This document shows, one piece after another, positions 1 through 46,921 of a stretch of DNA of 59,540 nt; position 1 is the first letter of the stretch; each line of letters begins with the position of its first letter. This stretch comes from an uncultured Desulfurococcaceae archaeon (GTDB lineage: Archaea; Thermoproteota; Thermoprotei_A; Sulfolobales; NBVN01), in the NCBI GenBank assembly GCA_964522175.1, contig CAZFVC010000001.1, forward strand, positions 1 through 59,540, given 5' to 3'. The notes beneath the pieces were generated by a model, which was not told where the DNA came from, did no database searches, and worked only from the letters and a program-made list of their open reading frames with translations. The position numbers and the translations under genes were made by a program.

Positions 1-3000
1 ACTCTAGAATTATCCTCATCATCTTAACTGTCTTGCCGGGCGGGCAGTAGGCGTCCACTGGATGGAAGGCGTTCTGCTGCAGGAAGTCCTCCCTAATCAT
101 TCTGGCGACGTCGAGAAGAAGCTTGTCCTCCTCTGGCAGGGCGTCAGGGCCTACTAGCCTGACGATCTCCATAAGCTCAGACTCTCTCTGAAGGATTTTC
201 AGAGCCTCATTCCTTATGTCAAGCCATTCAGGGAAGTCCTTCTTCCACCACTCCTCAACAGTCTCGACATAGAGGGAGTAGCTCATCAGCCAGCTTATCG
301 CCGGGAAGTGTCTCCTGTTCGCAAGCGATATGTCCAGAGCGACTAAGGTCCCTATATATCTTAAGGTGTTCTGGGTGACGGGCTCGCTGAAGTCCGCTCC
401 AGGTGGGGATACTGCCCCAACAATTGTTAGTGAACCGCTTCTTTCAGGAATCCCTGAGCACACGACCCTGCCTGACCTTTCATAGAACTCGGCCAGCCTC
501 GAACCTAGGTATGCGGGATAACCCTCCTCTCCAGGCATTTCCTCCAGTCTCGCACTGATTTCCCTCATTGCCTCAGCCCATCTCGAGGTCGAGTCAGCAA
601 CCATCAGTATGTCATACCCCATATCCCTGAAGTACTCGCCAATGGTTACACCGAGGAAAACACTTGTCTCTCTGGCTGCGACAGGCATGTTGGACGTGTT
701 GGCAATGAATACGGCTTTCTCGGACAGAGGTCTCCCTGACTTCGGGTCCTTCAGCTTAAGGAAACTGTGGAGAGCGTCAGCCATCTCATTACCTCTCTCG
801 CCGCATCCTACATATATATTCAGCTGTGTCCTCGCCCATTTAGTCAGTGTTTGAAGTAGCACAGTGTTATGGAATATTACAGGAGTATAGCCTCCGACGA
901 AGTTGCGCGTTTGAGGAACCACTAAGTCATAAACAATTGTCTTCTCTTCAACTATCTCAACGTTCTCAATCCTATCTAGGGTCACGTATTCAAGCATGCT
1001 CAGTATGTTTCTAAGATATTTTCTAAGAACCCTGGCCTTGACTGACTGCATAGCTTTACTCCTGGTTACGGCTTCAAGCTTAAGAAGAGACCTCGTAGTG
1101 ATATTCTCGTTTCTATAAATCTGGTTCCCTATGTGTATTCCTTGAGCCTCCAAGGCCCTCTTAGATAAGTAGTCGTAGATTCCCCTCAGAATTCTTGGAT
1201 CGACAGGTATTGCCTCCCTCGACACACGTCCAGCTCTTCCTGTATATGCTACTCTCTCAACTTGAAGAACCTTTTCTGTGCGTACTGCATCCTTAAGCAC
1301 TTTTTCAAAGAATTTCCGAATTTGTTCCTTCCCGGTTATCAGTATTCTGTTCTTTCTAGGCTTGAAGCTTACTGAGTAAAGAATTCCGAGCCTAGTTAGC
1401 AGATAGGTTAATCCTTTAGCAAGCTCCTTTGAAGCGGTAGATAATTCCAGCTGTGTCTTCCCTGCATAACCGTCTCCTAGGAAGAAGCCCTTAAGGAAAG
1501 CGGAAATCACATCATCGCTTGCAGTGAGTATTTCTTGAGGAACTTTACATGTGTTTGCCTTATTCTCTACAGGAATACCTAGGGCTTTGAGAATTCTTAC
1601 CACTAAGGATGAATGAATCTCTAATCCTCCAACAGTTCTGAATGTTTTACGGACTCCCTTAACATCGAATATCTTCGTCATCAGTTCCTCAAATCTATCT
1701 ATTAATCTAGCGTCATTATTGAAGAACCTCACATGGGTGGCTGCAATCATGCCGTCAGATATTATTAGTCCGAGAAGCTCTGCAAGATCCTCATCCAACG
1801 TGTTGGGTATTCTAACAACTTTAGAGCTTCTCCTAACCCGCAGTGTCTTAGGTAGCCAGATTTCTGCTTCAGTTAATTTCCTGAGATTCACAATAACCTT
1901 TAGCGGCACTGTTCTGTCTTTGTGATATATTATTTGTTTAAGCGTATCAGTTTTCAGTTCTGAGAGATCAGCAAGCTTCTCAAAGAGCTTGGGATCATTT
2001 CTTAGAATCTCCTTCAACTTATCCCTAACTAGATCATTGACTTCCTTATCGTCGCTTGCAATGTCTCCATATATGCTTAGTTTCTCAAGTAGCTTTTCAG
2101 CTAGAGGTATTTGTTTATCCTCCAGCTTTATGTGTTTAGGAACTATGAGAAACATTCCCTTCTCAATACTTTCCGCCTTAAGCTCCTTCACTTCCCCTTC
2201 AGGGAAGTAGATAGGGAGTTTATGCTGGGGAGTTACCTCAATAATCCTTCCGCTCGAAGTCTTTATTCTGACTATCCTGTCAGTATATCCTCTATAGACC
2301 TGTGTTGCGTGGACTTTCCTGAGCTTCCGGCCGTCGAAACCTATAAGCTCTATCGGCTCTTTAAGCTCATATATCTCTTCAGGTAGTGTTGGGTCAGGTT
2401 CACCCCCCTTCGCTTCCTTAAAGATTTCATCAATAATTCTCAGCGACCCATCACTAAGCATTACCGGTGTGCCTGGAACCACACATTTCCCGCTGCCGAA
2501 CCCTCCGGGAACTGCGGCCTTACCTCCTTTAGCTATTGGGAAAAGCATGTCGAGAACTCTCTGCCCAGTGATCAGAGGTTCCACAGGCTCCAACCTCTTT
2601 AGGTAGGGTCTCGGTTTCCTCACAGGCCATTTCTGAAGCATTGGGAGCTCTTTAACCTCTCCTCCTCCAATGTCTATGACAGCTATTGTTTCCTCTATGG
2701 TGTAGTCGCCGTCGGGAGCCACTTCGTTTAATATGCCCTTAATGCCGGGAGGCACCATTATTTTATGTTCCAAGATAGGCGTCTCCGGCACTACACCGAG
2801 AACAACTCCGGGCTCGACCTTGTCTCCTGGCTTAACTTCAGGGTTTCTATGGAATTCCCACTTCTTCTCCCTTGAGAGGGGAGGGACCTTAATACCTTTC
2901 TCGATGAAGGGGCCTATCATACTGCCGAGAACGGATAAGGGTCTCTGCAGTCCGTCATACACGGCACCAACAATTCCCGGCCCCAGCTCAGCAGAAAGCA

Positions 3001-3208
3001 GATCGCCTGTGCCTTCAACAGGTTCCCCGACTTTAAGGCCTGAAGTGTCCTCATACACCTGAATGAAGGCCCTATCTCCCTGCAGACCGATTATTTCACC
3101 GATTAGTCTCTCCTCACCAACCTGAACAACTTCGTAAACCATTGATCCTTTCATTTCCTCAGCAACTATGAGTGGTCCAGCCACCCTCCTTATTTTACCT
3201 ACTACCAT
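1..3208 (-). CDS. atpA: A-type ATP synthase catalytic subunit A precursor. It contains an intein and its 3' end is cut by the window edge.
   Basis: I translated the minus strand by hand from the ATG at 3208. It reads [21 protein letters not shown]...[29 protein letters not shown], then a 540-codon insert, then [32 protein letters not shown]...[41 protein letters not shown]... with no stop before position 1. It lies 4 nt downstream of the atpF stop. The ORF track omits it because it runs off the window. Confidence 0.93.
866..2485 (-). mobile_element. Intein (540 codons) with a LAGLIDADG homing-endonuclease domain, inserted in the atpA Walker A loop
   Basis: It starts with Cys ([13 protein letters not shown]) directly after GGFGSGK. 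Block B reads EVTPQHKL. Two LAGLIDADG motifs are present: [14 protein letters not shown] and [14 protein letters not shown]. It ends [23 protein letters not shown] and is followed by +1 Thr. Joining the flanks restores GSGK-T. Length is 1620 nt, in frame. Confidence 0.9.
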
Positions 3209-3212
3209 TTGC

Positions 3213-3560
3213 TCACACCTCCAGACTTATGCCTAAGTAAGTACGTATGAGGGAGGAATAATACTCCTTTACGTCCATTTCATGTGCCGTCCTCCCGCTC
3301 GGCATGTAAATAATTAGGGGATACATGGTGGTTCTTTTCAGTGACTCAACCACATTCTTAAGTCTGTCCTGAACAATCACCACCCCCACATCACCTCTCT
3401 CATATATGCTGGTCAACACCTGCTTCACTTTCTCCACGTTACCTCCGTTACCAAGATTTTCAACTATGTAACTCACCTTTGCTCCTCCTAGACGGAAGCC
3501 GGTGACGAAGACTTCGTCACCGACGACAGCTATTTTGCCTTTACTTACTGGTGAGCTCAT
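3213..3560 (-). CDS. atpF: A-type ATP synthase subunit F
   Basis: 115 aa. It sits between atpC and atpA. The [19 protein letters not shown]-terminus is typical of A/V-type subunit F. Confidence 0.85.
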
Positions 3561-4521
3561 AAAGCCATAACCACCTCTCTAAGCTCTGCTTCAGGTATTC
3601 AGGGGAGTACCCCATGCTTAATGCGTAGATTGTGTGTGTAACGAAAAAAGTTTCCCAGTCCTTTAGTATTAGGTACTGGAGAAGGGTTTCAATACCCAGG
3701 GGGGAGAGATGTATCTCGTTTAAGCAACGGAAGAGTTCTCCGAAGATTAGGAATGATTCCAGCCTCCCGTAGTCTTCAGCTGTCGCCTTAAGTATCTCCT
3801 GTTCCTTAGGATCGAAAAACTGTAGCACTTTAGAGATGTCGTGCTCAGTTAGCTCAGCCTTCCTCACTTCATGAATAAGTGGAATAACTTTCCTCACCCT
3901 ATTCATGCACCTTGTGAGGGCTTCCCCTCCACCAGCCTTCCTCACCTCATCAGCAACCATAGACCAGAACGTTTTCCTAGCCTTAAGGATGAAGTCGTAG
4001 GGATCTACCTCACGTATCTCGTAGTCCCTGTAGTTCTGAAGAATTTCTATGACGGGTTTGAGGTCTTCCCTACTCTTCTTCTTTAGGGACTCGATTAGGT
4101 CGGCGAAGGTTTTCGCTTCCTTAACCACTAAGAAAATGTCTTGATTTAGAGGATATGGGAGATCAACTGTTTTGTTACCTGCTATTCCATAAATAACTGC
4201 CATGAGAGGGTATCTTCCTATGTATGTGTTTACAACACTCGTCAACTTTCTTCCGGGCCCGATCTTGGTCATGAGTTCCTTGAGGTTGCTTGTCCAGCAG
4301 GACAGGAGCTTCGCATATATTACGTCGGATTGCGGTATTTCACTGATCTTTATTTCTTTCTGTAGGCACAGTGATACATCTGTTCCTGCAGCGGCGGTGA
4401 TGAAGTCTGAAGGTGTCTTAATGCTTACACCCACCAGCCTGTTTAGGTAGGTGGGTGTTATGGTCTTGTTTAGCTTCAGTTTAAGGACGCTGAGAAACTT
4501 TAGGTCGCTGGTTGTCCACAT
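3541..4521 (-). CDS. atpC: A-type ATP synthase subunit C
   Basis: 326 aa, helical. It lies between atpE and atpF in the H-I-K-E-C-F-A order and overlaps atpF by 20 nt. The call rests mainly on position and size. Confidence 0.75.
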   Translation of the reverse strand: MWTTSDLKFLSVLKLKLNKTITPTYLNRLVGVSIKTPSDFITAAAGTDVSLCLQKEIKISEIPQSDVIYAKLLSCWTSNLKELMTKIGPGRKLTSVVNTYIGRYPLMAVIYGIAGNKTVDLPYPLNQDIFLVVKEAKTFADLIESLKKKSREDLKPVIEILQNYRDYEIREVDPYDFILKARKTFWSMVADEVRKAGGGEALTRCMNRVRKVIPLIHEVRKAELTEHDISKVLQFFDPKEQEILKATAEDYGRLESFLIFGELFRCLNEIHLSPLGIETLLQYLILKDWETFFVTHTIYALSMGYSPEYLKQSLERWLWLYELTSK

Positions 4522-4525
4522 TGAT

Positions 4526-5122
4526 TTATCCCTTGAATATCTCCTTATTCAGCTCCCCCAATATTATTCTGATTGCTCTCTCCAACCTAGTTCTGTAGGT
4601 GTTGTCTATTGCCACGCTGGAGTCCTCGTTCTCAATAATCAGCCCCCCTAGATATTCCTCAGGAATTATTTCTGCGGCGATGAGGTCTTTCTGGAGTCCC
4701 AACTCCTTAACAGCCTCCTTAACTAGTTTGAGGTCGTGCTCAATTACCTTGACCCTGAAGCTCCCGCCTATGATTCCGCTGTCGAGGGAGTCTTTAAGTA
4801 ATCTCTTAATAGATTCCTTCCTCTCCGTCTTCGAGAGGTTCTTGATTCTCTCCGTAGCTTCCTTAACTATGTCCTCGATGAGTTCCCTCTTCAGTTTAAG
4901 GAGTTCAGCATTTAGCTCGCTTATCCTGGCAGTATATTTCCTGCTCTCTTCCTCCCTTACCTGTGTGATTATTTCTTCCTTCCTCTGCCTAAGTCTCTCC
5001 ATATATTCTCTCTTAGCTGACTCCACCAGTTCCTCCGCCTGTTTCCTAGCGTTCTCCAGAATTTTCTCTGCCTTCAGCCGCGCCTTCTTGATCACACTCT
5101 TCCTCAGTTCCTCTAGACTCAC
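4526..5122 (-). CDS. atpE: A-type ATP synthase subunit E
   Basis: 198 aa. A long charged N-terminal helix (LEELRKSVIKKARLKAEKILENARKQAEEL) is followed by a globular C-terminus. The operon position fits. Confidence 0.8.
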   Translation of the reverse strand: MSLEELRKSVIKKARLKAEKILENARKQAEELVESAKREYMERLRQRKEEIITQVREEESRKYTARISELNAELLKLKRELIEDIVKEATERIKNLSKTERKESIKRLLKDSLDSGIIGGSFRVKVIEHDLKLVKEAVKELGLQKDLIAAEIIPEEYLGGLIIENEDSSVAIDNTYRTRLERAIRIILGELNKEIFKG

Positions 5123-5145
5123 TCCCCCAACCTCCTAGGTCTTTA

Positions 5146-5658
5146 CTATATGGGGAGCCCTGCAATTATTGTCACTACTAGGTATCCCAGCACCATGCCG
5201 AGAATTCCGAAAAGCTCCTCGTAGGATGCGAGAATCATTGTAGATGTAGCTATCCTTCCCTTAGTCTTAACTAGCTCGAGAATACCTGACATACATACAG
5301 CTCCTTGGTAGGCTGCAGAGAACAGCTCCGCAAGCATTACCGCTAGGCTGACAGTGAATATCGCTGCGGCCTTGGCGATGGTCAGAGTCTCTGTCACGGA
5401 AGGTAAAACGCTGGTGAATCCTAGGAGTGTGTAGATGAATCCGTAGAACGTCTGAGTCATTGGTAGTGAGGAAAGCAGCATGACCCACTTGAAAGATCCC
5501 GGGTCCTCAGCCAGGACTGAGAGACCTGCATTCGCTGCCCTTAGAATACCTATTGCTGAACCTACAAATCCTCCTATGAAACCTAACGCTATACCTGCAG
5601 CCGCTACAGCGAAGGGGTCTAGGAACGCTGTGACTGGTTCTGTCATATCTCCACCCAA
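5146..5658 (-). CDS. atpK: A-type ATP synthase proteolipid (c/K subunit), duplicated 4-TM form
   Basis: 170 aa with two helical hairpins. Hairpin 1 reads GSAIGILRAANAGLSVLAEDPGSF...LPMTQTFYGF. This is the canonical c-subunit pattern, but with Met where the ion-binding Glu normally sits. Hairpin 2 reads SAAYQGAV...ILASYEELFGILGMV and retains Glu. Confidence 0.85.
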   Translation of the reverse strand: MGGDMTEPVTAFLDPFAVAAAGIALGFIGGFVGSAIGILRAANAGLSVLAEDPGSFKWVMLLSSLPMTQTFYGFIYTLLGFTSVLPSVTETLTIAKAAAIFTVSLAVMLAELFSAAYQGAVCMSGILELVKTKGRIATSTMILASYEELFGILGMVLGYLVVTIIAGLPI

Positions 5659-5719
5659 GAAGATGTTAGTGGGGGGTTATTAAGCCATGCGCAAAATTCT
5701 TAGACGTATGAAAACTTTC

Positions 5720-7738
5720 TCATACCCCTTTACCGACTAGTATATGCTTCCCCAGCTTCGCTGTGAGGGGCTGGAACTCCCTACCATTTCCTTCATACCA
5801 CTTCGGAAGGAACTCTACGAAGCATAGACGGAGGGAATGCACGAACGCCCCTATGACGCCGAACACTATGTTAATCATATTCATTGCCAGCATGATGAAG
5901 GCCGCCGCGACAGCACCAATAACTATTCCTGCCAGCGGTATCATTGAGGAGAAAGCTGTGAATACCTCTAGGGAAAGGCCGTTGAAGCTTTTCGCCATAA
6001 GGTATGTCGCTAATCCAAGCCCGGCAAGCCTGCTATACGACAGTATGTCACCGAGTAGGCCTGTTATGCTGAAGAACCACATAAGCATACCTAAGCCGCC
6101 CATGCTTTTCAGGCTTCCTGCAATAAGCATACCGAGCCCCACCAGGGATGCCCCTAAGAATATTGTGAGCATCTGGTCACTCATCGGGAATATGTCGTAA
6201 TGCATCATGGAGTGAAGGATGTATGGAATACCGAAGATCTGGACAATGAAAATACCTGCCTCCATCATGACGTGCCCGAAGTTTCCCTCCTTAATCCCTT
6301 TAGCTAAGGAGATGCCGTGGGATATGTTGATATGTATTAAACCAACCACCAGCGCGAAGGTTAGGAACCATATCGGGTCCACGAAGTTAAGTATAGAAGG
6401 CACTGCCGCCCCCTGCTCGGGGAGGGTGAATACCCATCCATTCTCTGTGAGGACGAATGAGAACCCGGCGAAGGTGTTGGAGAGGAGGCCGAATACGGTT
6501 GATGATATTGCAAGCATTAGCAGCATCTTCTTAAGGGTTACGTAGCCCTCTGAGTACGGATTGTCTATGAGTCCTGACCTGTCGAGAACGAACTTAATCA
6601 GAATGAATAAAATTATTCCGTAGACAAAGTCAGCGAACATGGCGCCGAAGAAAATCATGAATGAATACATTATTATTGGGGTCGGGTCCCACTCCCTCCT
6701 GTCAGGGACTCCGTAAAGCCTCGTAATGAGTTCGAAGGGCTTTATGGGTTTCCTATTCTTGAGTTTAGTTGGGGGTTCGCGATCCACCTTCTCCACGCGG
6801 GAGATGTAGAATGTGCCGACCTCCTTCTGCAGTGCCCCCGGAACTAGGTGGAATTCCGGCTCCGGCACCCAGCCCTCCACGCCTGCTAGGTAGTCTCCAC
6901 CGAGAGCACTCATCAAAGCGTTTAGTTTAGCCCTGTAAATCTCCGAAACCACTTTTCCGTAGCCGATCTCCGGAGCGTTCGACTCAAGAATCTCTTTCAG
7001 CTTATCCTGAAGCTTCTTGGATTCGTATGCAAGCTCATTTATCCTGGCTTCAAGCCTTCCAAGCTCTTCACTGAGGGTTTTATCCGAAGGTTCAATCGGA
7101 AGTATTTCCACCTTATTCTTCTTAAGCAGCTCGCTCAGGCTGTCCTTACTTATCTTCATTCCAGCAATAACAGCAACATCCTTATCCTCGATTGGTGCCC
7201 TCGCTACTATGAGTGTGTCTTCAGGTATTTCCTTAGCGACATTATTTATGGAGAATCTGCTTCCTAAAACAACCATGGAGTAGATAAGATCTCCTTCCCA
7301 CACAATATTCTTTATAGGGACATCCCCAACCACAGGGAGGAGAGCCTCCAGTGAGGAGTGAATGGTCCTGAGCTTGGAGAACTCTCGCCCCATGTTATCT
7401 ATGCTGTAAATCAGGTTCCCTACCTCGCCTTTCAGCCTTCTTAAAATCTCGAGAGTTTTAGATAGCTGCTCATCCAGAGTCGAGACATCAATGTCTTGGG
7501 TTATCTCCACAATAACGGGTTTTTCGTATGTGCTCTCCAGAGACTCTATAAGTCTCTCCAGCTCCTCAACCTCTCTGGCCTTCTCCTTTAATGCCTTAAC
7601 ATCCTCCTCAGGTATCTTCCCTATAGGCTCTACCTCCATAATCCCGAGTTCCTGAAGAGTGGCTATAACCTTCTCCCTTAAGTCCCTTGTCGTCAGAATT
7701 CTCACGTAAGTGAATCTCTCCGGGAAGGAGACAATCAT
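5720..7738 (-). CDS. atpI: A-type ATP synthase subunit I (stator a-subunit)
   Basis: 672 aa. A soluble coiled-coil N-terminal half is followed by a polytopic membrane C-terminal half. It sits between atpH and atpK. Confidence 0.9.
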   Translation of the reverse strand: MIVSFPERFTYVRILTTRDLREKVIATLQELGIMEVEPIGKIPEEDVKALKEKAREVEELERLIESLESTYEKPVIVEITQDIDVSTLDEQLSKTLEILRRLKGEVGNLIYSIDNMGREFSKLRTIHSSLEALLPVVGDVPIKNIVWEGDLIYSMVVLGSRFSINNVAKEIPEDTLIVARAPIEDKDVAVIAGMKISKDSLSELLKKNKVEILPIEPSDKTLSEELGRLEARINELAYESKKLQDKLKEILESNAPEIGYGKVVSEIYRAKLNALMSALGGDYLAGVEGWVPEPEFHLVPGALQKEVGTFYISRVEKVDREPPTKLKNRKPIKPFELITRLYGVPDRREWDPTPIIMYSFMIFFGAMFADFVYGIILFILIKFVLDRSGLIDNPYSEGYVTLKKMLLMLAISSTVFGLLSNTFAGFSFVLTENGWVFTLPEQGAAVPSILNFVDPIWFLTFALVVGLIHINISHGISLAKGIKEGNFGHVMMEAGIFIVQIFGIPYILHSMMHYDIFPMSDQMLTIFLGASLVGLGMLIAGSLKSMGGLGMLMWFFSITGLLGDILSYSRLAGLGLATYLMAKSFNGLSLEVFTAFSSMIPLAGIVIGAVAAAFIMLAMNMINIVFGVIGAFVHSLRLCFVEFLPKWYEGNGREFQPLTAKLGKHILVGKGV

Positions 7739-10477: not shown

Positions 10478-11513
10478 TGCCGCAGTCAGCCACACACATA
10501 CCTAAAGTCTTCATTTTCTCGCAGCTATAGGTCATGTACTTCTTCCTGCTTCCCCTCAGCCCCGCAAGATGCTCTATCTGATACCTAGCTATCCTCTCAT
10601 TGAAGTCGGGGCTGTGCCTCATGAGGTCCAGAATGTAGTCGACGGAAGCACCTATGTTAACTAGGAAGGTAGCTGCTGCGAATCTCTGGTGGTGTGTGAG
10701 GTGCTCTCCTCGGAGCAGTGTTGAGAGAATTTCCTTTATGCAGGGCGGAAACACGTCCTCCCTTATCTCACCCATTAACTCCTCCTTAAACTTTTCAGAT
10801 TCCTGAGTAGTGAAACCCCTGACCTTCCTAACAAGTTCCCTGATGTTTTGAGCGGCCTCCACGAATTTCTCGTTAGTTATCTCCTCCACATACAGCCTCA
10901 TTTCATTTATGTATGCCTTCACAGCCTCCTCAAGAAGCCTAACCACCTCACGCCTACCTAGATACACGTAACCCTTCCTCAGAACGAGGTTGGTGAGCTT
11001 CCATTTAGGGTCGGTCCTAAGCTTTTCGGAAAGCTTCAAATATACAGGTATAGGCATCCTGAAGGGGTAGCACTCAATAACGGTTCTTCCGCTTCTAGGA
11101 TCCTCACCAACTACTGCTTCAAACCCACATCTATTAGTGTCAGTGGCCAAAAGCTCCATCTTTACGCCTAACCTCCTCCCAACAGCCTGAATAACTTCAT
11201 CCTTCTCTGAACGGAGGTACTCATTAGCCCTCTTCCCTTCATAATCCGCCAGCTTCCTCAAAGCCCATATATCGGCTAGAGCAGCAATCACTAAGGCAAG
11301 GTGAAACACAGCGACCTCCCTACCCTCATCTAGGGAAGGTCTGTAGGGTCGGTTAGTTATTGCTAACTCAACCCTCCTTAAGGCACCTTCGTAGTAGTCA
11401 GGAATGTCGATAAGGTCGTTTAGATCCACGGGGTAACTATAGAAGTGGCTGAAGTATTCCTTAACATCGATCAGGAAAGGATACTTCACGTATGTCGGCA
11501 GATCCTCCCTCAA
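10401..11513 (-). CDS. priL: DNA primase large subunit PriL
   Basis: 370 aa. It contains FPPCIKEILSTLLRGEHLTHHQRFAAATFLVNIG and C-terminal cysteines (YSCEKMKTLGMCVADCG), typical of the PriL Fe-S domain. Confidence 0.88.
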   Translation of the reverse strand: MREDLPTYVKYPFLIDVKEYFSHFYSYPVDLNDLIDIPDYYEGALRRVELAITNRPYRPSLDEGREVAVFHLALVIAALADIWALRKLADYEGKRANEYLRSEKDEVIQAVGRRLGVKMELLATDTNRCGFEAVVGEDPRSGRTVIECYPFRMPIPVYLKLSEKLRTDPKWKLTNLVLRKGYVYLGRREVVRLLEEAVKAYINEMRLYVEEITNEKFVEAAQNIRELVRKVRGFTTQESEKFKEELMGEIREDVFPPCIKEILSTLLRGEHLTHHQRFAAATFLVNIGASVDYILDLMRHSPDFNERIARYQIEHLAGLRGSRKKYMTYSCEKMKTLGMCVADCGTKTPLQYYWRELRKERRKSSQPQKS

Positions 11514-11594
11514 TTAATCACCTTTCCCACTAACAAGCAGTTATATACTTAATAACTTACTTCCGCAATTTTTCTGCTAGAGGAGGGGGATCAG

Positions 11595-13325
11595 TTGGGT
11601 AAGTGGGTAGTAACGTCGGCATGGCCCTACATAAACACAGTGCCTCACCTAGGCAACCTGGTCGGAAGTATACTGTCAGCAGATGTGTTCGCAAGGTTCC
11701 TCAGGATGATGGGTCATGAAGTAGTTTTCGTGAGCGGAAGCGACGAGCACGGGACACCGATAGAGATTGAAGCCATTAAGAAAGGTATAAGCCCTAAGGA
11801 CCTGACGGATCAGGCTCACGAATACGTTAAGAAAATGTGGGAGCTGTGGGACATATCCTTCGACAATTACACAAGGACTGAGACAGAGATTCATAAAGAG
11901 TTCGTTCAGGGAATAATGAAGGACATTCACGACAGAGGCTACTTCACCGTTAAGCCCCAGATAGTTCCATACTGCCCGAAGGAAGGGATATACCTACCGG
12001 ACAGGTTTGTTCAGGGCATCTGCCCTTTCTGCGGCTTCGAAGAGGCTAGGGGGGATCAGTGCGACGGATGTGGCAGACTCCTAGACCCTCAAGACCTGAT
12101 AGACCCTAGATGCGTTTTCTGCGGGACACGCCCCCACTTCAAGAAAAGGGATCACTGGTTCTTCAGACTTGATCTCCTAGAGAACGAAATTATTGAATGG
12201 ATCAGCAAGAATGAGAAGCTTGATCAGAACGTGCGTAACTTCACCGTATCATGGATCAGGTCAACCGGACTCACCCCTAGGGCAGTGACTAGGGATAACA
12301 GGTGGGGGATCCCTGCACCGTTCCCTGGAGCCTCAGATAAAACGATTTACGTATGGTTCGATGCCTTAATGGGTTACGTCTCAGCAACCATTGAGTACTT
12401 CCGTAATATTGGAGAGCCTGAGAAGTGGAGGGAGTTCTGGATCAATCCTCATGCGTCAACATCCTACTTCATAGGTAAGGACAACATCCCCTTCCATGCT
12501 GTAATCCTTCCCGCAATGTTCATGGCTAGCGGAAGGGGGTACAATCTACCCACCCTAATCTCCGCGACCGAGTACCTGATGTATGAAGGAAGTAAGTTCA
12601 CTAAAAGGAAGAGAATAGGTATTTGGGTGGATGAGGCCCTGAAGATAGTTGATGATGTGGATTACTGGAGGTACGCCCTCATTAGGATGAGGCCTGAGGA
12701 CAAGGACACGAATTTCAAGTGGTCCGAGTTCGTTAGGTTTGTGAATAATGAGCTCAATGACCACATAGGTAACTACATACACCGCGTGCTTACTCTTATC
12801 TTCAAGTACTTCCATGGCGAGGTTCCTGAACCTGAAGCCTTTAACGATGACGACTTGGAATTCGCCTCAGCCATTAAGAATCGCTGGAGAAGATATGTAG
12901 AGCTTATGTATAAGGCGAGGCTTAAGGCAGCGTCCGAGCACATAGTGGCTTTGGCTGAGGAGGGGAACAGATACCTGAATAGGAGGGCGCCATGGAAGGC
13001 TGTTAAGGAGAATCGTGGTGAGGCCGCCGCCATACTGTTCAATGCGTTCCGATGCGCCGCAGCCTTAGTATATATGCTTAAACCGTTAACTCCAAGATCC
13101 TCTCAGAGATTCGCTGAGATAATGGGCATTAAGAATGTGGAGTTCTCGGATGATGAACCTCCAAAAATAGATTCAGGTATAAGGATCTCTAAGCCCTCTC
13201 TCGTATTCCGCAAGCTACCTAAAGAGCTAGTGGAGAGTATGCTGGATGAAGGAAAGAGGGAGAAGCTGCTGGCTCAGGTCAAGGAGGAGGTATCTAAGGG
13301 CAGACCAGAATTCCTGAGGTTCTGA
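11595..13325 (+). CDS. metG: Methionyl-tRNA synthetase
   Basis: 576 aa. It has a HIGH-type motif (PYINTVPHLGNLVGS), a Cys-rich knuckle (CPFCG...CDGCG...CVFCG) and a KMSKS-like SKFTKRK. TTG start preceded by GGAGGGGGA. Confidence 0.93.
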   Translation: MGKWVVTSAWPYINTVPHLGNLVGSILSADVFARFLRMMGHEVVFVSGSDEHGTPIEIEAIKKGISPKDLTDQAHEYVKKMWELWDISFDNYTRTETEIHKEFVQGIMKDIHDRGYFTVKPQIVPYCPKEGIYLPDRFVQGICPFCGFEEARGDQCDGCGRLLDPQDLIDPRCVFCGTRPHFKKRDHWFFRLDLLENEIIEWISKNEKLDQNVRNFTVSWIRSTGLTPRAVTRDNRWGIPAPFPGASDKTIYVWFDALMGYVSATIEYFRNIGEPEKWREFWINPHASTSYFIGKDNIPFHAVILPAMFMASGRGYNLPTLISATEYLMYEGSKFTKRKRIGIWVDEALKIVDDVDYWRYALIRMRPEDKDTNFKWSEFVRFVNNELNDHIGNYIHRVLTLIFKYFHGEVPEPEAFNDDDLEFASAIKNRWRRYVELMYKARLKAASEHIVALAEEGNRYLNRRAPWKAVKENRGEAAAILFNAFRCAAALVYMLKPLTPRSSQRFAEIMGIKNVEFSDDEPPKIDSGIRISKPSLVFRKLPKELVESMLDEGKREKLLAQVKEEVSKGRPEFLRF

Positions 13326-46821: not shown

Positions 46822-46921
46822 GGGGCCGTCGTCTAGCTTGGCTAGGATGCCAGCCTGGGGTGACAACCCCGAGGTCCCGGTGCGCTGGTGGTCCCGGGTT
46901 CAAATCCCGGCGGCCCCACCA
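46822..46921 (+). tRNA. tRNA-Pro (anticodon GGG) with a 22-nt intron at 37/38 and an encoded CCA
   Basis: Folded by hand. Acceptor stem GGGGCCG/CGGCCCC, D arm GTCT..GGAT, anticodon stem CCAGC/GCTGG. The loop is C-T-GGG-G, then the intron, then C. Variable loop TGGTC, T arm CCGGG-TTCAAAT-CCCGG, discriminator A, CCA. It is an isolated GC-rich island. Confidence 0.85.
46861..46882 (+). other. tRNA-Pro intron (22 nt, canonical 37/38 position)
   Basis: The sequence TGACAACCCCGAGGTCCCGGTG interrupts the anticodon loop. Its CCCC can pair with GGGG (positions 34-37), as expected for a bulge-helix-bulge substrate. Confidence 0.75.

Follow-up and report, generated by a model that had tools for sequence, protein, structure and literature searches.

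A probable VMA-b intein with a homing endonuclease in the ATP synthase subunit A gene of a Desulfurococcaceae archaeon

An interrupted subunit A gene

We analysed a 59,540-nucleotide (nt) stretch of DNA from an uncultured Desulfurococcaceae archaeon (contig CAZFVC010000001.1, positions 1 to 59,540; hereafter the window), which begins with atpA; this gene encodes the catalytic subunit A of an A/V-type ATP synthase and is interrupted by a 540-codon insert. The minus-strand frame that opens at the ATG at 3208 runs for 1069 codons with zero stops and reaches the window edge (translation of window positions 1-3208). Residues 1-241 of the encoded precursor are subunit A, residues 242-781 are the insert and residues 782-1069 are subunit A again, and the Pfam nucleotide-binding domain ATP-synt_ab is found as two halves, one on each side of the insert. 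The features of the gene are listed below; residue numbers within the insert count from its first residue, and structural boundaries come from an AlphaFold (AF2) model.

2486-3208, minus strand: atpA N-extein, 241 codons, ending ...VPGGFGSGK, the first part of Walker A (GGFGSGK); from translation and Pfam ATP-synt_ab_N, ATP-synt_ab_Xtn and the start of ATP-synt_ab
866-2485, minus strand: insert, classified here as a VMA-b (vma-1b) intein, 540 codons from Cys1 (TGT, 2485-2483) to Asn540 (AAC, 868-866); junctions from translation, with profile and structure matches
2138-2485, minus strand: N-terminal part of the HINT splicing domain, residues 1-116, with block A Cys1 and block B T85-x-x-H88; AF2 beta strands 7-116
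1871-2104, minus strand: helical accessory domain 1, residues 128-205, between the N-terminal HINT part and the endonuclease; five helices, predicted local distance difference test score (pLDDT) about 90 in AF2
1295-1792, minus strand: LAGLIDADG homing-endonuclease core, residues 232-397; Pfam LAGLIDADG_3, Foldseek matches to I-DmoI and PI-SceI
1745-1786, minus strand: LAGLIDADG motif 1, residues 234-247, with catalytic Asp244
1460-1501, minus strand: LAGLIDADG motif 2, residues 329-342, with catalytic Asp338
992-1276, minus strand: helical accessory domain 2, residues 404-498, between the endonuclease and the C-terminal HINT part; AF2 helices, aligned to 7qss residues 320-400, where TliVMA has its accessory domain (PMC8966425)
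866-985, minus strand: C-terminal part of the HINT splicing domain, residues 501-540, with block F Asp520 and block G His539-Asn540; AF2
2-865, minus strand: atpA C-extein, codons 1-288 of 350, with Thr+1 (ACT, 865-863), truncated at the window edge; from translation and Pfam ATP-synt_ab and ATP-synt_VA_C

Removal of 2485..866 yields contiguous AtpA with the Walker A motif restored as GSGK|T (the bar marks the insertion point), and the spliced window sequence aligns without gaps across the GSGK|TVLL junction to the intein-free AtpA of close relatives. A preliminary description, made from the letters of the DNA alone, had placed a 540-codon insert at 866-2485 behind a 241-residue N-terminal part in the frame from ATG 3208, and had held that Walker A (GSGK-T) is rebuilt on its removal. 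The placement proved exact to the base, the reconstruction is borne out by the gapless alignment, and the motifs that it quoted (Cys1, TxxH in EVTPQHKL, two LAGLIDADG motifs, a terminal HN and a +1 Thr) all lie where it put them.

Profile searches found both of the domain types that this description anticipated in the insert, Intein_splicing (Pfam, E = 1.4e-16, 61 bits against a cut-off of 35.8) and LAGLIDADG_3 (E = 3e-18). The NCBIfam model intein_Nterm TIGR01445 also matches the insert (52 bits, cut-off 24.5), and the top NCBIfam model for the precursor is PRK14698, an intein-bearing AtpA of 1017 positions, in which the insert covers model positions 373-669. A sequence search of the PDB with the insert gave 7qss (E = 1.6e-45), 7qsu and 7qst (E = 7.6e-32) as the best matches, together with 4o1s (TvoVMA, E = 3.4e-13), the Thermoplasma volcanium VMA mini-intein. 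The first of these is the Thermococcus litoralis VMA intein (TliVMA), which has an active endonuclease, 7qsu is its accessory-domain deletion, and 7qst is the Pyrococcus horikoshii VMA intein (PhoVMA), whose endonuclease is dead (PMC8966425).

The AF2 model of the insert (mean pLDDT 79.8, predicted template modelling score 0.67) has five parts. When it was used as a Foldseek query, 7qss came first (E = 5e-28), followed by PI-TkoII (2cw7), PhoVMA (7qst), PI-PfuI (1dq3) and PI-SceI. Residues 232-397 are modelled as a pseudo-symmetric alpha-beta-beta-alpha-beta-beta-alpha fold in which the pattern is seen twice, and the LAGLIDADG core alone matches I-DmoI with a target-normalised TM-score of 0.69-0.76. 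The insert is very probably a full-length class-1 Cys1/Thr+1 VMA-b intein with a homing endonuclease, inserted in a Desulfurococcaceae host into the A-type ATP synthase, between the Walker A Lys and Thr of subunit A. When the window was searched for further inteins by tblastn with 45 family members, nothing was found below E 0.09.

An artefact, whether a chimeric assembly or a pseudogene that received a foreign insertion, might be suspected from two circumstances: the environmental origin of the assemblies and the truncation of the gene at the window edge. However, the frame is open over 3207 nt, and a longer public contig (L089, the JGI metagenome contig Ga0072682_106678, 99.5% identical to the window in nucleotide sequence over 13.5 kb) adds the missing 62 C-terminal codons and keeps the frame open over 1131 codons. 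The full-length precursor is thus 1131 amino acids (aa) long, and the gene call in L089 gives the same gene as a single 1131-aa product carrying intein domains. The same junctions occur in five independent assemblies (JGI, ENA and Logan; 99.5-99.9% nt identity), a second allele type is present in two more, and the ratio of non-synonymous to synonymous substitution rates (dN/dS, or omega) is far below 1 throughout. An artefact is in effect refuted, and the flanks are contiguous AtpA sequence with no sign of a chimera, as had been assumed.

The list of open reading frames (ORFs) for the window leaves out ORFs that run past the source end, which is why atpA is missing from it. The preliminary description was right that the list misses the gene, yet this is a window-edge artefact without biological meaning. 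Those who rely on the list would overlook both the catalytic subunit of the ATP synthase and the element that interrupts it. On the plus strand, the list holds five ORFs of at least 60 aa at 609-3062, not the four that had been counted.

Insertion site, architecture and predicted activity

The intein sits at K|T within GSGK|T, and in the window translation the YVG|C position lies 20 residues downstream. In P. horikoshii subunit A the archaeal site b is Lys240|Thr241 and the yeast site a is Gly260|Cys261 (Swithers et al. 2009, PMC2814812), numbering that confirms the preliminary assignment of K|T as the archaeal and G|C as the yeast site. By position, we assign the window intein to the established archaeal VMA-b (vma-1b) site. 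The corresponding target in an uninterrupted gene is split in the window.

836-2515, minus strand: predicted homing site, split by the intein; last ~30 nt of the N-extein (2486-2515) plus first ~30 nt of the C-extein (836-865), the extent being inferred

When joined, the predicted homing site of the window type reads ...GGCAGCGGGAAA|ACTGTGCTACTT..., with AAAA at its centre. In the nearest genome copy, locus L001 (an uncultured Desulfurococcaceae metagenome-assembled genome (MAG), CAYOJG010000003.1), the intein is at the same site and 97% identical in aa sequence, the N-extein is 98% identical, and the junction sequence of this allele type is GGGTCAGGGAAA|ACAGTGTTGCTC. The central four bases of the TliVMA homing site are likewise AAAA (PMC8966425).

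TliVMA (PDB 7QSS) is the closest known system, being the best match in both sequence and structure, yet it has only about 26% identity to the window intein over the structural alignment. The two have in common the host protein, the VMA-b site, the HN|T ends, both catalytic aspartates, the central AAAA of the target and the domain order of HINT-N, LAGLIDADG endonuclease, accessory domain and HINT-C. They differ in host, which is a euryarchaeon for TliVMA and a crenarchaeon for the window, and in that cleavage by TliVMA has been shown experimentally (PMC8966425) whereas that by the window intein is predicted. The window intein is also 108 residues longer and has an extra five-helix domain of about 80 residues (128-205). 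PhoVMA (PDB 7QST) belongs to the same family and site, but it has lost both catalytic aspartates and its endonuclease is inactive (PMC8966425), whereas the window copy keeps D244 and D338.

More distant systems share the design only in part. PI-SceI (VDE) of Saccharomyces cerevisiae VMA1 has the same host protein family, the same combination of HINT and LAGLIDADG domains and a homing life cycle, and matches the window intein in structure at E about 1e-9. However, it occupies site a (G|C), which lies 20 residues farther downstream (PMC2814812), has Cys+1 rather than Thr+1 and is not allelic, and its DNA-recognition region is inserted within the HINT domain instead of forming a separate domain beside the endonuclease (PMC8966425). 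The large archaeal inteins PI-TkoII (2CW7) and PI-PfuI (1DQ3), which match in both sequence and structure, do have extra domains beside the endonuclease, but these are not demonstrably homologous to residues 128-205, and the two inteins occupy other sites, in DNA polymerase and ribonucleotide reductase, respectively. By comparison, unannotated site-b inteins in public data, such as those in Desulfurococcales MAGs (CAYOJG010000003.1 and JAGHCP010000003.1) and metagenome contigs (Ga0072682_106678 and Ga0164318_10011400), come from the same order, have the same site and 527-540-aa architecture and show no difference in kind.

The domain at residues 128-205 forms a confident five-helix bundle in the full AF2 model. 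When the intein is aligned to TliVMA, its residues 92-216 (about 125) face only Tli residues 96-138 (about 43), and on this alignment TliVMA has no counterpart of similar size. The domain is also present in the site-b inteins of about 500-540 aa from other phyla and so is not unique to the window genome. It matched no Pfam family. Modelled in isolation it gave a mediocre AF2 result (pLDDT 69.6), with which Foldseek returned nothing at E<=0.001; the weak matches (E 0.6-3) were all XRE/Cro-type helix-turn-helix proteins. We treat this as a lead only, in that the domain may be an XRE-like helix-turn-helix. Accessory domains of VMA inteins modulate site recognition, and a phage 434 repressor domain has been grafted into one of them (Beyer & Iwai 2022, PMC8966425); a natural helix-turn-helix-like accessory domain would, by analogy and again as a lead, agree with that picture. 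If this proved true, residues 128-205 would represent a new accessory DNA-recognition module.

The window intein retains every catalytic residue. Across 45 aligned site-b inteins C1, T85, H88, D520, H539, N540 and T+1 never vary, and the window copy has both LAGLIDADG aspartates, D244 and D338. Some site-b relatives lack one catalytic Asp, which is replaced by Gly, Asn, Ser or Ala, or lack the entire endonuclease; examples are L006 (Gly), L008 and L020 (Asn) and L040 (endonuclease gone). Between the window and L001 inteins omega is 0.106, and in the LAGLIDADG core, where there are 9 synonymous changes and 1 non-synonymous change, it is 0.03. These counts put the endonuclease core under strong purifying selection, as would be expected if the domain were still needed for its activity.

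The established chemistry of the family suggests how the element would work. The 1131-aa precursor, with its P-loop split, would be unable to bind ATP. The HINT domain would then excise itself in four steps, starting with an N-S acyl shift at Cys1, continuing with transesterification to Thr+1 and cyclisation of Asn540, and ending with an O-N shift. The products would be a normal subunit A of 591 aa and a free protein of 540 aa. The latter would be a monomeric double-LAGLIDADG endonuclease held between two helical accessory domains, which would recognise and cut the uninterrupted ...GGxGGxAAA|ACx... sequence in intein-less atpA alleles. Repair of the cut allele from an intein-bearing copy would copy the intein in (homing).

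Distribution, relatives and base composition

A genome scan returned 80 related loci, on which our distribution counts rest. The identical atpA position holds an intein in 46 of them, 15 of which represent MAG species labelled Desulfurococcales, Desulfurococcaceae or Thermoprotei. The inteins in these 15 are 527-540 aa long and 41-54% identical to the window copy (up to 97% with L001 counted), with the exception of one 450-aa form and one 168-aa mini-intein. The remaining 31 come from Nitrososphaerota, Thermoplasmatota, Hadarchaeota, Thermococci, Asgard, Micrarchaeota, Aenigmatarchaeota, Iainarchaeota, unclassified archaea and one Anaerolineales bacterium. An exhaustive search of 1.84 billion cluster representatives with the intein as query gave 56 proteins at E<=1e-30 and 756 at E<=1e-10; many of the top matches are about 1085-1138 aa long with a match onset near residue 240, as expected for a subunit A bearing a VMA-b intein. 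That the closest relatives are Desulfurococcaceae and Desulfurococcales MAGs agrees with the crenarchaeal host that had been guessed from the gene content.

The bacterial copy (L016 4001-5590, Anaerolineales bacterium UBA4826, DHFK01000051.1) is a 530-aa intein at the same K|T site, 30% identical to that of the window; contamination of the bin is possible. It would fit with the cross-domain transfer of the VMA-b intein that is mentioned in the literature.

The intein is patchily distributed among close relatives. Apart from the L001 type, the nearest exteins (87, 84 and 84% aa identity) are intein-free. A Desulfurococcales MAG whose extein is 78-91% identical to that of the window carries the 168-aa mini-intein at the same site (L040, 4001-4504), and L020 carries the 450-aa form, also at that site, which is 33% identical and lacks the second LAGLIDADG motif. 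Mini-inteins of 168-189 aa without an endonuclease occupy the same site in L040 and in five Thermoplasmata/Euryarchaeota MAGs (L045, L053, L055, L061 and L062). Mini, 450-aa, full-length and empty alleles amount to all stages of the homing cycle within one order.

These data also bear on whether the intein benefits its host, as a post-translational switch in which conditional splicing of the P-loop (in response to redox state, temperature or substrate) gates the assembly of active ATP synthase, a role that has been put forward for P-loop inteins generally. The clustering of inteins in ATPase P-loops has been taken to suggest selective retention (PMC4760082), and here the site is occupied in at least eight phylum-level archaeal groups and one bacterium, with the splicing residues invariant in 45 of 45 sequences. 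However, the nearest relatives do without the intein, and the mini, degenerate and full-length forms stand together at the site as they do in a homing cycle. Selection, moreover, is strongest in the endonuclease core, not in the HINT domain, and we identified no switch-specific sequence feature. We regard a host switch as improbable.

Two earlier surveys list the site-b inteins of Thermoplasmatales and Thermococcales only (Swithers et al. 2009, PMC2814812) or assign them to 'Euryarchaeota, Other Archaea' (Novikova et al. 2016, Table 2). The host range of VMA-b is therefore wider than the 2009 and 2016 surveys record. As far as we have checked, the Desulfurococcales VMA-b inteins, which are abundant in public MAGs, are undescribed in those two surveys. 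The site-b intein is not rare. A rough neighbour-joining tree groups the inteins of Desulfurococcales with one another and keeps other phyla separate; our intein and extein trees carry no support values and were used only for this coarse clustering. The intein is therefore a long-term resident of Desulfurococcales rather than a recent import from another phylum.

We considered low GC content as a sign of foreign origin and rejected it. GC content averages 42.2% in the insert against 48.7% in the window as a whole, and reaches 50.9% in the N-extein and 52.4% in the C-extein. The preliminary description had the direction of this contrast right but overstated it in giving 33-37% for the insert, in which no 200-nt stretch falls below 38%. 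Its interpretation of the low GC as a mark of foreign, mobile origin does not stand, given that every one of the 44 site-b inteins with both junctions available has a lower GC than its extein, in all sampled phyla and by 2 to 16 points, and that the Desulfurococcales inteins form a clade of their own. Since the dip is a trait of the family, it has no value as evidence of recent import into the window genome. Several site-b inteins equal their exteins in third-position GC although overall GC differs, which points to amino-acid composition as the source of the dip.

Divergence around the intein

The genes upstream of atpA belong to the same operon and provide the background for comparing lineages.

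3213-7738, minus strand: upstream A-type ATP synthase operon genes, comprising the five below
5720-7738, minus strand: subunit I; Pfam V_ATPase_I
5146-5658, minus strand: subunit c/K; Pfam ATP-synt_C
4526-5122, minus strand: subunit E; Pfam vATP-synt_E
3541-4521, minus strand: subunit C, by position only
3213-3560, minus strand: subunit F; Pfam ATP-synt_F

No Pfam family matches the 326-aa ORF at 3541-4521, which is flanked by the E and F genes, at E<=0.01, and none is recorded for its counterparts in relatives; by position the ORF should be the C subunit of the A-ATPase. Relatives share the ATP synthase gene order of the window, which then continues with A-B-D. After the operon in the closest intein-less relative there is a gene with a weak phage-integrase Pfam match (L081 8199-8779); the part of the window that was examined has no counterpart.

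We compared two lineages, W (the window, also L089-L093) and the L001 type (also L086), by synonymous divergence (dS):

Five upstream operon genes: dS 0.10-0.17
atpA codons 1-160: dS 0.11
81 extein codons directly before the intein: dS 0.34-0.37
Intein: dS 0.12
C-extein: dS 0.29-0.44
atpB, first 150 codons: dS 0.44

Taken together, the 81 codons ahead of the intein and about 500 codons behind it have a dS of 0.34-0.44. The intein differs from its flanks with Fisher p = 2e-8, and the flanks differ from everything else with p = 6e-12. A two-rate model with free breakpoints, fitted within the divergent tract, placed the maximum-likelihood low-divergence island at L089 11070-12635, where the intein occupies 11076-12695. 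The island thus begins 6 nt away from the 5' junction of the intein and stops 60 nt short of its 3' end, and the observed gain in likelihood was reached in 0 of 100 permutations. In the 45+45 nt around the insertion point, the lineages show 10+8 differences, all synonymous, one of which is an AGC/TCA serine switch that cannot be attained by single synonymous steps; about as many differences separate W from distant intein-less species over the same 45+45 nt. Each allele type is repeated in independent assemblies (five for W, two for L001), so chimeric assembly is not the cause of the island.

This pattern of substitutions indicates that the intein and the flanking extein DNA have separate histories. 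The low-dS island is most simply read as recent homing, either of one intein lineage into two diverged atpA alleles or as a re-entry after the catalytic core of the gene had been replaced by recombination. Its coincidence with the intein is a clean footprint, at the population-genomic level, of an intein and a host gene with different histories, and it points to an intact, thermostable endonuclease with an unusual domain layout.

Several points weigh against homing as the explanation. The flanks adjoining the intein are the most divergent part of the region, whereas in classical homing the flanks of the donor are co-converted and the adjoining DNA should be the most similar. For homing to hold, co-conversion would therefore have to be confined to less than about 8 nt (5') and about 3 nt (3'), or the intein would have to have been lost and then to have reinvaded. 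The baseline for divergence is only about 3.3 kb of upstream sequence, and dS downstream is uneven (atpB 0.15-0.44, atpD 0.23, DUF61 1.14), which means that background recombination is common in the population. The metagenome scan, in which the spliced-junction DNA was not used as a query, found no intein-less allele of the same species and only one further close copy, of the L001 type. Finally, splicing and DNA cleavage are themselves predictions from conserved residues, and the last 15 residues of the intein have low pLDDT in the AF2 model.

The same data can be explained if the intein still splices but is immobile and has been inherited vertically from the shared ancestor of both lineages, the flanks in the conserved atpA/atpB core having been replaced by ordinary homologous recombination with more distant relatives that stopped at the intein because the incoming DNA was intein-less or could not be aligned there. 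The intein dS of 0.12 equals the upstream operon background of 0.10-0.17, the downstream genes are mosaic in divergence too, the rough tree has a single Desulfurococcales intein clade, and decay is common in the family, as in the loci L006, L008 and L020 that have lost a catalytic Asp and in L040, which has lost the endonuclease. However, two separate replacement tracts would both have to stop at the intein junctions, the 5' one within 6 nt, and an incoming intein-less tract that crossed the site would have removed the intein. An omega of 0.03 in the endonuclease core is unexpected for a dead domain, and both catalytic aspartates are intact. Vertical inheritance of an immobile intein is for these reasons unlikely, though it deserves consideration. 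We could name no donor for the divergent flanks: compared with nine other Desulfurococcales alleles, W and L001 are saturated in every case (dS above 1 or undefined).

Returning to homing, we propose tentatively, as a possibility that falls well short of a conclusion, that the intein is now moving between diverged atpA alleles in hyperthermophile populations with co-conversion of less than 8 nt on the 5' side and ~3 nt on the 3' side, and that the XRE-like domain at 128-205, which the characterised Thermococcales VMA inteins lack, helps the endonuclease to tolerate target sites with differences at almost all synonymous positions. If movement is indeed current and co-conversion as limited as this, the locus would be a natural, sequence-resolved case of archaeal intein homing across about 10% flank divergence. 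The understanding of how inteins work is unchanged by these results. A selfish element at the archaeal site is well known, and Desulfurococcaceae are a less-documented host group; only the footprint of decoupled history and the extra domain go beyond the textbook case, and the decoupled history is a new finding.

Smaller irregularities were seen elsewhere in the alignments. L001 and L086 differ at 20 of 6559 nt; seven of the differences lie within 60 nt of the C-extein (window-equivalent 50-109) and four within 55 nt of the intein (window-equivalent 1769-1823), where L086 has the window allele. These clusters look like small gene-conversion patches within the population. Past atpD and outside the window, the DUF61 gene (L089 15799-16224) has a dS of 1.14 and a dN of 0.087, about 10x the operon background, and the alignment stops there; this looks like recombination or a break in synteny between genomes that are otherwise ~95% identical.

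A tRNA gene was also noted in the window, far from atpA. ARAGORN in bacterial mode reported no tRNA across the entire window; Rfam gives a tRNA match of 50 bits at 46822-46918 (plus strand), which spans 97 nt against a 71-position model, making an intron probable. The anticodon region, read by eye, suggests tRNA-Pro(GGG) with a genomically encoded CCA.

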